From a virus (lineage: Duplodnaviria; Caudoviricetes), in IMG/VR virus record IMGVR_UViG_3300016657_000022, positions 1 to 64,000 of that record: a stretch of 64,000 bases of DNA, one strand, 5' to 3'. Made by a program: the position numbers and the translations under genes. Shown here piece by piece: positions 22,425 through 26,574 of the stretch. The notes under the pieces were generated by a model that was not told where the DNA came from, made no database searches, and saw only the letters and a program-made list of their open reading frames with translations. Within the stretch, counting starts at the first letter, position 1. Each line of letters starts with the position of its first letter.

Positions 22425-23021
22425 TCAGCCGAAAGGGTTCTTGTCGCCCATCAGCATCATGAGCATGAGCGGGTTCATGGCACCGGCTGCACCGCCGCCG
22501 AGACCGCCTGACAGCATGAGCATCGGGAGCATGTCCTCGAAGTTGCCCTTGTCGCCGGTCATCATGCTCATCATCATGAGCTGGCCCATGTCCATGGAGC
22601 CACCTTCCGAACCGCCGCCGAACAGGTTCGTGAACGACTTGATGATCGTCACGCCCTTCTCGATGCCCATCATGTTGACCTTGGTGGGCAGGAAGCGGGA
22701 GCTGTGGCCTTGCACGTTGAGCGTGCGGAGCGAACCGGACTCGGTGACTTCCTGAATGAAGCCGTATGCCTTCTTCTCGCTGACGAGAATGTCGCCGGTC
22801 TTCACCTGCGATACAGGCGTCAGCATGGCGAACGCCGGGATGTCCATTCCGAAGAAGTCGAGCGGGTTCTTGCTCAGGCCCTCACCATCGAACGTGACGA
22901 TGCCGGTGCCGGTCTTGATCCCGGTCAGGCCGGTCTGGAGGTCGTAGCTCACGTTTTCGATGGGCTGGATCATGGCCGACATTGCGGTGGCCATCTTGCT
23001 CTTCATATCCTTGAACATCAT
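22425..23021 (-). CDS. Phage protein with Met/Gly-rich C-terminus
   Basis: 198 aa, AGGAG RBS; IPAFAMLTPVSQVKTGDIL...MLPMLMLSGG...NPLMLMMLMG. Confidence 0.8.
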   Translation of the reverse strand: MMFKDMKSKMATAMSAMIQPIENVSYDLQTGLTGIKTGTGIVTFDGEGLSKNPLDFFGMDIPAFAMLTPVSQVKTGDILVSEKKAYGFIQEVTESGSLRTLNVQGHSSRFLPTKVNMMGIEKGVTIIKSFTNLFGGGSEGGSMDMGQLMMMSMMTGDKGNFEDMLPMLMLSGGLGGGAAGAMNPLMLMMLMGDKNPFG

Positions 23022-23044
23022 GCTTCTCCTGCGTCATTGATGGG

Positions 23045-23520
23045 TCGGAATTGACCCAAGGAAAGGGGAATAAACTGAGTGTGCTGCTGGACGCCGTTGT
23101 TCCCATTAAGCCAGTCTCGTCTGACTCACACACCCCATGCCCAGCCGGTCCCTGACGGTTTGCAAGGATCCTTGACCAGACAGGCATGGCCTCGGGTCCG
23201 TCGAACGGTTTCCCTCGGTCTAACTGTAAAGGGTGGCAGGGAACTCTAACCTGCGTCACGTCCTCCCGCTTTTTAGCACGGGACACCCTAGCACGGACAG
23301 CTATTATGGGCCGCTTACGGTTTCGCCCATCGGGTGGTCGCCGTCTGTCCATGTCTCTATTTGGTTCCCCCGCCCAGCTTCTGCCTCGGGGTTCTGGCGC
23401 GTAAACACATCTGGGCTTGCGGCTTCGACAGAGCTTCCCTGTCTAGGCAGTCCTGCATTAACGTCTTAGTCCACCAGCATCACCGAGTTGAACTGCGGTG
23501 GGATAGCCTCGGGGAGACGG
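23045..23520 (-). ncRNA. Candidate large ornate noncoding RNA (~480 nt)
   Basis: More than 12 helices, a long-range helix, a possible pseudoknot and GNRA/UUCG-type loops; no credible ORF. Confidence 0.55.
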
Positions 23521-23544
23521 GAAGAGGACATTACTGATCTGGTA

Positions 23545-23661
23545 TGGCAGCCGTGGATGGACTCGAACCACCGACTATCTGGCCCGTCATCCTTAGTGAA
23601 GGCGCCTTCACGCACAGGATGCTGCTAGGGTTTCGTGCTCTACCGACTGAGCTACACGGCT
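23545..23661 (-). ncRNA. 117-nt tRNA-like RNA with acceptor, D and T arms and CCA but no canonical anticodon arm
   Basis: AGCCGTG/CACGGCT-G-CCA; TA-GCTC-AGTCGGTA-GAGC-A; GGTGG-TTCGAGT-CCATC; 63-nt insert between the D and T arms. Confidence 0.8.
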
Positions 23662-23675
23662 ATACCAATCTCGAT

Positions 23676-23746
23676 CTATATGGCCGGTGGGTTTGAGCTG
23701 AGCCTACCCACAAGAGCCGTCAAATGCTGGCCTATCGGCCATATAG
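23676..23746 (-). ncRNA. Candidate 71-nt small RNA
   Basis: 11-bp closing stem CTATATGGCCG/CGGCCATATAG; inner GTGGGT/ACCCAC stem. Confidence 0.45.
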
Positions 23747-23813
23747 AACGAGGAACGCGGCGAAGCCGCAACCCAAGAAAAGAACTGACCGGAGATCCAT
23801 CCTAAGTCAAGCC

Positions 23814-23841
23814 AAACGGGGAAGGGATCTCTCCCTTCCCC
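23814..23841 (-). terminator. Terminator-like hairpin after the Ig-domain gene
   Basis: GGGGAAGGGA/TCCCTTCCCC stem followed by GTTT. Confidence 0.55.
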
Positions 23842-23858
23842 TTGGTTCAGCCGCAGGC

Positions 23859-24431
23859 TTACGCCGTGCAGGTGATGTTTTTGGTGGCGGTCTTGGCACC
23901 ATCCTGCGAGGTCGCAGTGATGACCGCCGAGCCGTTGGCGACGCGAGTCACCAGACCCGTGCTCGACACCGTGGCAACGGCGAGGTTGCTGCTGGTGTAG
24001 GTGACGGTGCCATTGCTGGCATTGGCCGGGGTCTTCGTGATGGCGAGCTGCACGGTGGGCGAAGCCACGGTCAGCGTGCTCGTGCCGGTGGGCGTGATGG
24101 CAATGCCCGTCAGCGCCACATAGTCGGTGTCGATATTGAGGGTGATGCCCCCCATATCGGTGATGTTGTCCGGGAACAGGAGTTCACCGGGAACGGCAAC
24201 ACCGTCCGACGCACGGGTGTGGTAGAGAGCATCACGGACGTGATGCCAGATGACGTGGCTCTCAGCCAACTGACCATCGCCCGGAATGAGCGGGTTGTTG
24301 CCGAGAGGATCGGCCAGCTCGTCATGCTTGAACGTGCCGATCTTGTTGGAACCAGCGGGAAGAGCGTCCCCGTTGGACTGGACAGTCACCACCTTGGTGG
24401 TGTTGTTATAGGCAATCTGATACTCAGCCAT
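23859..24431 (-). CDS. Ig-like (Big_2) domain protein, probable capsid decoration (N4 gp17-like)
   Basis: C-terminal TGIAITP...QLAITKTPANASNGTVTYTSSNLAVATVSSTGLVT...GSAVITATSQDG. Confidence 0.85.
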   Translation of the reverse strand: MAEYQIAYNNTTKVVTVQSNGDALPAGSNKIGTFKHDELADPLGNNPLIPGDGQLAESHVIWHHVRDALYHTRASDGVAVPGELLFPDNITDMGGITLNIDTDYVALTGIAITPTGTSTLTVASPTVQLAITKTPANASNGTVTYTSSNLAVATVSSTGLVTRVANGSAVITATSQDGAKTATKNITCTA

Positions 24432-25755: not shown

Positions 25756-26574
25756 CAATTCTTCAACTTGGTTCGTTAATCCAAGCCAGCAGCATTACCT
25801 GCATCTCCACATTGCTGTGGAGTTGGGACTATATCATACCACACTGAGGTTTATCAGTGGGTCCGGGCGCTTCGATAGCACTTGCTACCTACTCTACTAG
25901 ATTCAGCTTATGCTGCCGTTCGATAGTCTCTGCACCTTCCGATATTCCAAGATAGCCTCACACATCTCATAAAGATGCTCAATGTGAAGCTCGCCTTTGG
26001 CACGGTTTACGCACCAAGCAAGCCATTGAACATTATCCGGTGTGTAGCCTTTTGACGGATCTTTTTGATCCAAGGACAGGCACAGCGGATGCTCCTTTTC
26101 GAGATTAAGGGGAGCACCTGTCAAAGCACATGAACGCTTTTGTTTGATGAACAACTCGTAGAGTTGATCGGCAGTCACCACAGGGGGTTCTTTGCCTAGC
26201 TTTTTGCATCTACCACGGGCGTCAACCAGTCGTTGGCGTATTGCTGACATCAGCAAACGATCTTCTTCTGGAATTGCCTTGAGCTTGCCTGACCCTCGAT
26301 AACCGGGACGGGCTTTACGCCATTCAGCCGCTCGCTGTGCATTGCACTGCTTGCAGTAAGAATGGTGTGTCCTATGGGCATTTTTGAAACTGCTTGAGGA
26401 CTTAGCTCTGGTGAATTGGTCAATGTTTTTGACCTCACCACATTGGTTGCATTTCTTGGTTTGCATATACCACCTAACTGGAAGTGATATATGCATATCG
26501 GCTTGGCTCATGATTGTCCACTAGGGATGTTCCATGAGTTCACCCGGTTTTAAGGCCACCATGCTTATTGGTTA
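25756..26574 (-). mobile_element. Group I self-splicing intron (819 nt) with an endonuclease ORF
   Basis: P1: exon AGGCCAU pairs IGS GUGGCCU with a U.G splice pair; GAACUCAUGGAA...CAAUCAUGAGCCAAG core; P7 GAGACUA (25924-30) and AUGAUAUAGUCC (25826-37); terminal G; removal restores KEAI-MTALY in frame. Confidence 0.92.
25903..26466 (-). CDS. Intron-encoded HNH-like homing endonuclease
   Basis: ATG 26466 after AGGTGG; N-terminal CNQC...CKQC; CALTG...LSLDQKDPSKGYTPDNVQWLAWCVNRAK. Confidence 0.85.
   Translation of the reverse strand: MQTKKCNQCGEVKNIDQFTRAKSSSSFKNAHRTHHSYCKQCNAQRAAEWRKARPGYRGSGKLKAIPEEDRLLMSAIRQRLVDARGRCKKLGKEPPVVTADQLYELFIKQKRSCALTGAPLNLEKEHPLCLSLDQKDPSKGYTPDNVQWLAWCVNRAKGELHIEHLYEMCEAILEYRKVQRLSNGSIS

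Follow-up and report, generated by a model that had tools for sequence, protein, structure and literature searches.

mascRNA, at the end of MALAT1, is a natural tRNA-like processing element of the eukaryotic nucleus, and 'tRNA scaffold' RNAs were reportedly engineered by Ponchon and Dardel in 2007. In both, the anticodon arm of a tRNA body is replaced or degenerate, and the body provides recognition by RNase P and the 3'-end enzymes as well as stability. We know of no established natural counterpart of either in bacteria or phages. In phage T4, two small stable RNAs that do not decode adjoin the tRNA genes, namely rnaC (species 1), with a terminal T-arm-like hairpin, and rnaD (species 2). tmRNA and YrlA (RF02553) both have a long helix at the position of the anticodon arm, in the first case together with a tRNA-like acceptor/T-arm domain, and in the second as part of a tRNA-mimicking module that is permuted, with a closed acceptor, in an RNA that ends in a long Ro-binding stem.

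Here we analyse a gene that belongs among such tRNA-like non-coding RNAs. It lies in IMG/VR record IMGVR_UViG_3300016657_000022, of which positions 1 to 64,000 were analysed (this whole stretch of 64,000 nucleotides is called the window). The source is a freshwater/wastewater N4-like (Schitoviridae) phage with a 73.5-kb genome, in which there are an RNAP2 gene (phrog_2051) and a giant ORF, longer than 2,284 aa, taken for the N4-type virion RNA polymerase. Its closest cultured relatives are N4-like phages of Rhizobium/Sinorhizobium, at 61% RNAP2 identity. A first-pass annotation had described the element largely correctly, and its reading of the RNA as a mimic or decoy is a possible one. The element resembles the tRNA scaffold and mascRNA in its body and in the features that would allow its processing, and differs from the laboratory construct and the eukaryotic RNA in being a phage gene.

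The tRNA frame and its replacement arm

The gene lies on the minus strand with the 5' end of its RNA at 23661, and the 117-nt CCA-ended frame had been placed at the correct coordinates. Its parts are listed with the evidence on which each assignment rests.

23545-23661, minus strand: tRNA-shaped gene of 117 nt; RNA position 1 is 23661, G73 is 23548 and CCA is 23547-23545 (RF00005, sequence)
23655-23661, minus strand: 5' acceptor strand AGCCGUG, pairing 7/7 with 23549-23555
23637-23652, minus strand: D arm GCUC-AGUCGGUA-GAGC (Rfam match, sequence)
23573-23635, minus strand: 63-nt substitute for the anticodon arm and variable region, RNA positions 27-89 (Rfam match, folding)
23588-23621, minus strand: solid core of the arm, helices 41-46:69-74 (CAUCCU/AGGAUG) and 51-56:61-66 with loop GCGC (constrained folding)
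23596-23611, either strand: tip of the arm, with the 16-nt perfect DNA palindrome GTGAAGGCGCCTTCAC (palindrome scan)
23556-23572, minus strand: T arm GGUGG-UUCGAGU-CCAUC (Rfam match)

The acceptor, D and T arms, as first drawn, are confirmed by the sequence and by a match of 23661-23548 to model positions 1-71 of RF00005 (42.9 bits, E 9e-6, gathering score 29), which is the sole tRNA match that Rfam finds in the 73.5-kb genome. The acceptor stem AGCCGUG/CACGGCU has Watson-Crick pairs at all 7 of its 7 positions and is followed by G73 and an encoded CCA. The tertiary nucleotides U8, A9, G15/C48, G18G19, U54U55C56 and A58 are present, and the last five nucleotides of the 63-nt replacement, UAGUC, resemble a normal variable loop with its G46 and C48. 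Compared with canonical tRNA (RF00005), the element therefore has the 7-bp acceptor stem, discriminator and CCA (N73-CCA), both the D and the T arm, the tertiary nucleotides and the end of the variable loop, with all 16 frame pairs intact. The anticodon arm alone deviates: 59 nt are aligned where the model has a 17-nt arm, and the 5-bp stem, the 7-nt loop, U33 and an anticodon at 34-36 are all absent. With an irregular hairpin in place of this arm, the RNA is unable to read codons. It should be kept in mind that detection through RF00005 recovers intact frames only, so that the pattern of an intact frame with an altered anticodon arm is partly an ascertainment effect.

The earlier statement that no anticodon arm can be drawn is borne out in two further ways, since ARAGORN at default settings calls no tRNA on the element and a fold constrained to the tRNA frame contains no such arm. 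As standard tRNA finders overlook the gene, genes of this type are likely under-annotated. Judged by its sequence, the element is a real tRNA-shaped, CCA-ended RNA gene without an anticodon stem-loop. It also carries the features on which bacterial RNase P and 3'-end maturation would act, that is a coaxial helix of 7-bp acceptor stem and T arm, a U at -1 and an RCCA end. A U at -1 and a 3' GCCA suit the preferences of bacterial RNase P, and at this level of sequence features the proposal that the RNA could be processed by the enzyme holds.

When the acceptor, D and T helices are enforced, the replacement arm is predicted to form an irregular hairpin of roughly 19 pairs. In helices 41-46:69-74 and 51-56:61-66 the pairs form with probabilities of 0.98-1.0, and the outer pairs are weak, with alternatives to CGA:UCG and CCC:GGG at 0.4-0.74. 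The long helix of the first description thus stands in its two inner parts, but its base does not, as CGA:UCG and CCC:GGG fail in the constrained fold. This cloverleaf-compatible fold lies 1.6 kcal/mol above the unconstrained minimum, and folding of the insert or of the entire RNA gives no stability beyond that of dinucleotide shuffles (z = -1.1). Neither the window nor the 80 fetched loci contain anything similar to the insert.

The self-complementary tip at 23596-23611 had been correctly recognised, and GTGAAGGCGCCTTCAC is the only perfect palindrome of at least 14 nt within the 64-kb window. Palindromes are under-represented there (seven 12-mers versus about 16 expected, and one of at least 14 nt versus about 4), a shortage that is consistent with restriction-site avoidance. 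An exact scan of IMG/VR for the palindrome gave 10 matches, all unrelated and within RecD-like helicase coding sequence. In silico, an extended duplex dimer beats two hairpins by about 20 kcal/mol, as holds for any palindromic hairpin; dimerisation through the palindrome is thus thermodynamically feasible in the model and may be possible. In a copy of the element from another metagenome (X2, see below), a G>A change at 23602 falls on the central base of the palindrome, within the 4-nt hairpin loop of the predicted fold, and because of it the X2 DNA is no longer a perfect palindrome.

A decoding tRNA interrupted by an intervening sequence of 34-42 nt, either tRNA-Leu(AAG) or an amber suppressor with CUA at 34-36, is a very improbable explanation of the insert. 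With its intron option, ARAGORN does return Leu(AAG) with a 34-nt intron at 32/33, but the stem of this model has 3/5 pairs, of which one more is lost in X2 (G28>A), position 33 is a C, and the 13-nt variable arm forms no stem. The CUA is in register at 34-36, and the variants found at 37 (G>A) and 38 (C>A) fall on typically tolerant loop positions; against a suppressor, the ORFs of the window are long under the standard code. The same genome has an HNH-bearing insertion in its RNAP2 gene; however, 34-42 nt is far under the size of a self-splicing group I core (about 200 nt or more), and Rfam gives no intron match. No contiguous deletion restores a 5-bp stem in any register against 27-31 and 39-43, all of which were checked manually, and no 3-4-3 bulge-helix-bulge can be drawn on the constrained fold. 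To our knowledge, bacteria have no enzyme for bulge-helix-bulge introns.

Relation to other tRNA-like RNAs

Among the RNAs described above, tmRNA occupies the same genomic slot in relatives of the phage. In the element, UAGCA-GCA and a short GCA...UGA frame are reminiscent of the surroundings of a tmRNA resume codon; both the motif and the frame, of 5-6 codons, are within chance expectation. The element has C3-G70 rather than G3.U70, a full 4-bp D stem and no pseudoknots, and tmRNA models give no match on it, although they score the tmRNAs of relatives at 93-109 bits. The element is thus not a tmRNA, as had been claimed from the outset. YrlA can equally be set aside: no match to RF02553 was obtained at E up to 5, and the element, unlike YrlA, ends at its acceptor stem. 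T4 rnaC and rnaD have no RF00005 match, whereas the element keeps a complete tRNA frame, and a relationship was rejected, the common sequence being a 7-nt T-loop word only.

A further comparison is offered by phage tRNA arrays in IMG/VR, where we found a recurrent family of tRNA-shaped genes of 111-123 nt, with three frames per phage, in which Rfam sees tRNA only. Their extra domain consists of AAUGYG, a covarying hairpin and then CRC-UAACAGCAAU, behind which some members have a mini anticodon-like hairpin (loops CUGUUAA, AUUUUAA and CUUGUAA). Examples are the following, with others among loci L014-L042:

L014:710-820, 1052-1166 and 1253-1367
L028:523-875
L024:422-928
L025:8492-9562

These genes resemble the element in length, in having the same D and T arms, in the roughly 45-50 extra nt at or near the anticodon arm, and in the motif UA(G/A)CAGCA. 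They differ from it in occurring three per phage in tRNA arrays and in mostly keeping an anticodon-stem-like pairing. A covariance model of the extra domain (R1) found no match on the element in a scan of 23000-24200, and membership was therefore rejected.

The acceptor end had been likened to that of tRNA-Trp. A scan of 185,579 genomes for the acceptor stem gave six matches, which are tRNAs Val-GAC and Ile-GAU in gene arrays plus four chance matches. Since the scan named no ancestral isotype, and no cellular tRNA with the same acceptor stem and a known isotype supports a Trp-like identity, we do not retain this claim. A scan of IMG/VR for exact matches to the 5' half of the element found one, in L043, where an unrelated, odd tRNA of actinophage type (L043:3204-3283) has its 5' 26 nt in common with the element, an 8-nt anticodon loop and the ARAGORN anticodon 'gcga'; it is possibly a four-base decoder or a pseudogene. 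In the literature, we found no description of anticodon-less tRNA-shaped phage RNAs.

A cassette site within a conserved non-coding unit

On the minus strand, the genes are arranged in the order RNAP2, a MarR-like gene, an Ig-like (Big_2) gene ending at 23859, a hairpin, a leader, the element, a trailer and a gene for a 198-aa protein. The RNAP2 gene itself is interrupted at 25756-26574 of the window by about 830 nt that include an HNH/EndoVII-type ORF (25903-26511, minus strand). This insertion is missing from the relatives L012, L013 and L054, where RNAP2 is a single 410-aa ORF, and it gave no intron match in Rfam at the gathering threshold. The surroundings of the element are made up as follows:

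23818-23841, minus strand: terminator-like hairpin 3' of the Ig-like (Big_2) gene, upstream of the leader
23662-23790, minus strand: conserved structured leader before the cassette site (comparison of relatives)
23022-23544, minus strand: conserved non-coding trailer of about 520 nt, between the cassette site and the 198-aa gene (22425-23021)

The leader contains a long hairpin with arms at 23670-23691 and 23731-23752 (22 nt, 86% complementary) that encloses an inner hairpin at 23687-23711, the latter with compensatory changes among relatives (GUGGGU/ACCCAC, GUGGAU/AUCCAC, GUGGAC/GUCCAC and GAGGAU/AUCCUC). The trailer has invariant blocks and compensatory changes in six relatives, for example GACAG/CUGUC versus GGCAG/CUGCU, and a second module that is present in the window, L065, L057 and L013 and missing from L063 and L054. 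It matches nothing in Rfam and is probably a large structured RNA or a 5' UTR that hosts inserted RNA cassettes. A promoter in the leader was considered and rejected, as its TATAGAT belongs to the long hairpin, which covaries, and is found nowhere else in the genome; a scan for sigma-70 promoters found nothing upstream of the element. The ORF at 22882-23352, which lacks homologues, is unlikely to be a gene and was discarded as a marker. The 198-aa protein has a Gly/Met-rich tail and belongs to no Pfam or PHROG family, nor was anything RNA-related found in it.

Using this protein as a query, we fetched relatives graded by divergence, in which the site, bounded by the end of the leader (about 23662) and the start of the trailer (about 23542-23544), is occupied in very different ways:

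L054: empty, the leader running straight into the trailer (window 23669 abuts 23540); of the relatives in which the region is intact, this is the closest
L058: two-piece tmRNA (L058:367-739)
L063: two-piece tmRNA (1679-2057) and a degenerate tRNA (2062-2132)
L065: tRNA-Asn(GUU)-like gene, a second acceptor/T-arm RNA of about 130 nt and a 39-aa membrane ORF
L057: tRNA with a 12-nt anticodon loop (L057:2083-2162)
L061: tRNA with a 13-nt anticodon loop (L061:1695-1776)
L062: tRNA-Thr(UGU)
L056 and L013: tRNA-Arg(UCU); the leader differs
L060: tmRNA (1914-2290) and a 67-nt tRNA-like gene (1014-1080), with a tRNA-Arg(UCU) elsewhere in the locus

The same leader is found ahead of a tmRNA (L058, L063), ahead of tRNAs (L057, L061, L062, L065) or ahead of the trailer itself (L054). 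As leader and trailer are conserved and the content between them is swapped, the element makes up, by this comparison of sequences, the whole content of a defined cassette site for RNA genes, which lies in a conserved non-coding unit. In the cultured relatives RHph_X3_15, Arace01 and ort11, no RNA gene is annotated at the equivalent place.

The two-piece tmRNAs of L058, L060 and L063 are of the alpha/betaproteobacterial permuted type, one of them with the tag VNDNEPVMAHRLAA, which points to an alpha- or betaproteobacterial host; taken together with the nearest cultured relatives, they point to Alphaproteobacteria. We found no account of a tmRNA in Schitoviridae in the literature beyond mentions in methods. 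Behind the tRNA-Asn-like gene of L065, the RNA of about 127 nt at L065:1645-1771 has an acceptor stem CUCCUGU/GCAGGAG (7 bp), a T arm and GCCA, with expanded arms replacing the D and anticodon arms, and RF00005 is blind to it; the 39-aa membrane ORF that follows it is also present in L057. In L013, the tRNA-Arg at the site is followed about 360 nt downstream by a minimal sequence resembling a type III hammerhead, CUGAUGAG...CGAAAC (L013:8335-8374), with a sub-threshold Rfam score of 27 bits (E 0.048).

Several occupants of the site combine good frames with abnormal anticodon arms, that is loops of 12 or 13 nt, a truncated arm in the 67-nt gene, or a loop without U33. Some of their traits, such as U.U mismatches in the acceptor stem and the loops without U33, are decay-like. 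The concern that homologues of the element might be ordinary tRNAs is justified for the occupants of the site, which are ordinary or mildly abnormal tRNAs of other sequence and not orthologous to it; it is not justified for the true orthologues, which retain the insert.

This arrangement bears on an alternative that we consider improbable, namely that the element is a processing signal acting only in cis, where RNase P and the 3'-end enzymes would cut between the leader hairpin and the RNA of about 520 nt and leave the excised piece as a by-product. Such a signal would fit a cassette lying inside one conserved non-coding unit whose leader and trailer are contiguous in L054, and occupants that are all RNase P substrates whatever their anticodon arm, several with abnormal arms and kept frames; mascRNA at MALAT1 and the tRNA punctuation of mitochondria would be parallels. 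However, the empty site of L054 shows that processing there is dispensable, the decoding-competent tRNAs and the tmRNAs of the same site clearly act in trans, and the ascertainment bias of RF00005 applies to the kept frames. This alternative overlaps with the reading that we prefer (see below), but denies the RNA a role in trans.

Copies of the element and its possible roles

Contigs from freshwater and wastewater sequencing runs of 12 studies contain the locus, and copies of the element with its insert are present in at least three other metagenomes, in runs from other studies and years. Contigs of four runs were examined and yielded three informative copies (X4, X7 and X2). The phage is rare in IMG/VR and JGI metagenomes: searches for relatives based on RNAP2 found two loci in IMG/VR and one close locus in the metagenome collection, none with the element. 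The element is also missing from the IMG/VR relatives L012 and L013 and from 14 Logan, ENA or NCBI relatives, a blastn search of 23400-23800 against 50,697 phage records gave no match, and exact scans of IMG/VR with the junctions between D arm and insert and between insert and T arm gave coding or fragment matches only and no further copy.

In X4, the element shows 0/117 differences, against 6/115 in the downstream flank (Fisher p = 0.014). The X7 copy has five differences, C38>A and four that amount to two double-sided pair swaps in the T stem (91-105 from G.U to C-G, and 92-104 from U-A to A-U); the chance of two such pair-preserving double changes among five random substitutions is about 5e-5. 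The X2 copy has G28>A, G37>A, the change in the palindrome loop, changes in the D loop, and indels in the 5' acceptor strand, the pairing of which drops to 5/7, and it is more divergent in the element (8/117) than in its flanks (11/406; p = 0.048). Changes are few overall, and none of the variant positions in the three copies lies in the two solid helices of the arm.

Homology of the X4 and X7 contigs with the window stops exactly at RNA position -1/-2. In X7, the element lies 13 nt behind a tRNA-Asn-like gene, and its upstream sequence is the 3' end of a tRNA-Asn of the L065 type. The pairing of a leader UGGUAU with a trailer AUACCA, which the first-pass annotation had pointed out, can be formed in the window but is not shared by these copies, whose upstream sequence is unrelated. 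A further contig from X4 (contig 4, 275 nt) has positions 1-37 in common with the element, followed by 82 unrelated letters, and therefore points to recombination inside cassettes.

These copies give two sides of the question of whether the element is selected. It might be a recently crippled tRNA without any selected function, in which a bad join or a small palindromic insertion broke the anticodon arm of a formerly normal gene at a hotspot of swapping, too recently for the remainder to have decayed; we think this unlikely, while granting it an appreciable chance. The site is indeed very fluid, with empty, tRNA, tmRNA or tandem forms in close relatives, and the contig that shares only 37 nt and the X7 element right behind another tRNA gene are in keeping with such an origin, as are the damaged acceptor strand of X2, the mismatches of neighbouring occupants, and an insert that is unremarkable in stability and has no relatives. 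It is harder to reconcile with a frame whose 16/16 pairs and tertiary nucleotides are all intact while the arm alone differs, with a copy in X4 that stayed identical despite about 5% divergence of its flank, with the double compensatory change in the T stem of X7, and with persistence in two habitats and in samples dated between 2018 and 2025.

The reading that we prefer, and hold as just short of probable, is that the element is a functional, non-decoding small RNA with a tRNA body, matured by tRNA enzymes. The identity of X4 next to a diverged flank speaks for it, and the compensatory swaps of X7 point to a maintained structure, as far as comparison of these sequences can tell, although gene conversion by another tRNA, instead of stepwise compensation, could have produced the swaps. 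A narrow lineage, the damage in X2, a folding energy that is nothing out of the ordinary and the untidy site speak against a selected function. Located in the non-coding stretch that separates the Ig-like gene from the 198-aa gene, the element is presumably cotranscribed with that stretch, and every other cargo of the site being an RNase P substrate argues that the site is expressed as RNA. RNase P would then cut at position 1, guided by the acceptor stem, the T arm, the D arm and GCCA, and the ordinary tRNA 3'-end enzymes would trim the product to CCA, giving a stable RNA of about 117 nt; the same processing would provide the downstream structured RNA with a defined 5' end.

Because the RNA cannot decode, any selected function must come from its tRNA body or from the arm that it displays. 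The body may tie up enzymes or toxins whose recognition of tRNA relies on the elbow and the CCA end; a role as a decoy for tRNA-targeting defence, as put forward by the first-pass annotation, is putative and purely speculative. Alternatively, the body may be a mere chassis for processing and stability, by analogy with the tRNA scaffold and mascRNA of MALAT1. More specifically, the site as a whole might be a cassette for counter-defence or translation rescue, with tmRNA, tRNAs, tRNAs with enlarged loops and the anticodon-less form as its contents, and the element as a scaffold that serves as bait or presents the arm: a lure that can neither be cleaved nor decode, for effectors that detect the body or the CCA end of tRNA, or a hairpin arm shown to a partner. 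We give this last scenario a small chance.

If the element is only a crippled tRNA, it shows the speed at which tRNA cassettes are shuffled at a hotspot of Schitoviridae, and warns that the pattern of an intact frame with an odd anticodon arm can be an ascertainment effect. If instead the RNA is made and selected, it would be a further example of a tRNA body put to a non-decoding use by a phage. The locus also provides a natural experiment: among phages with about 80-95% identity elsewhere, this one site contains a tRNA in some, and a tmRNA, the mimic or nothing at all in others, which allows the effect of each cargo to be compared directly.
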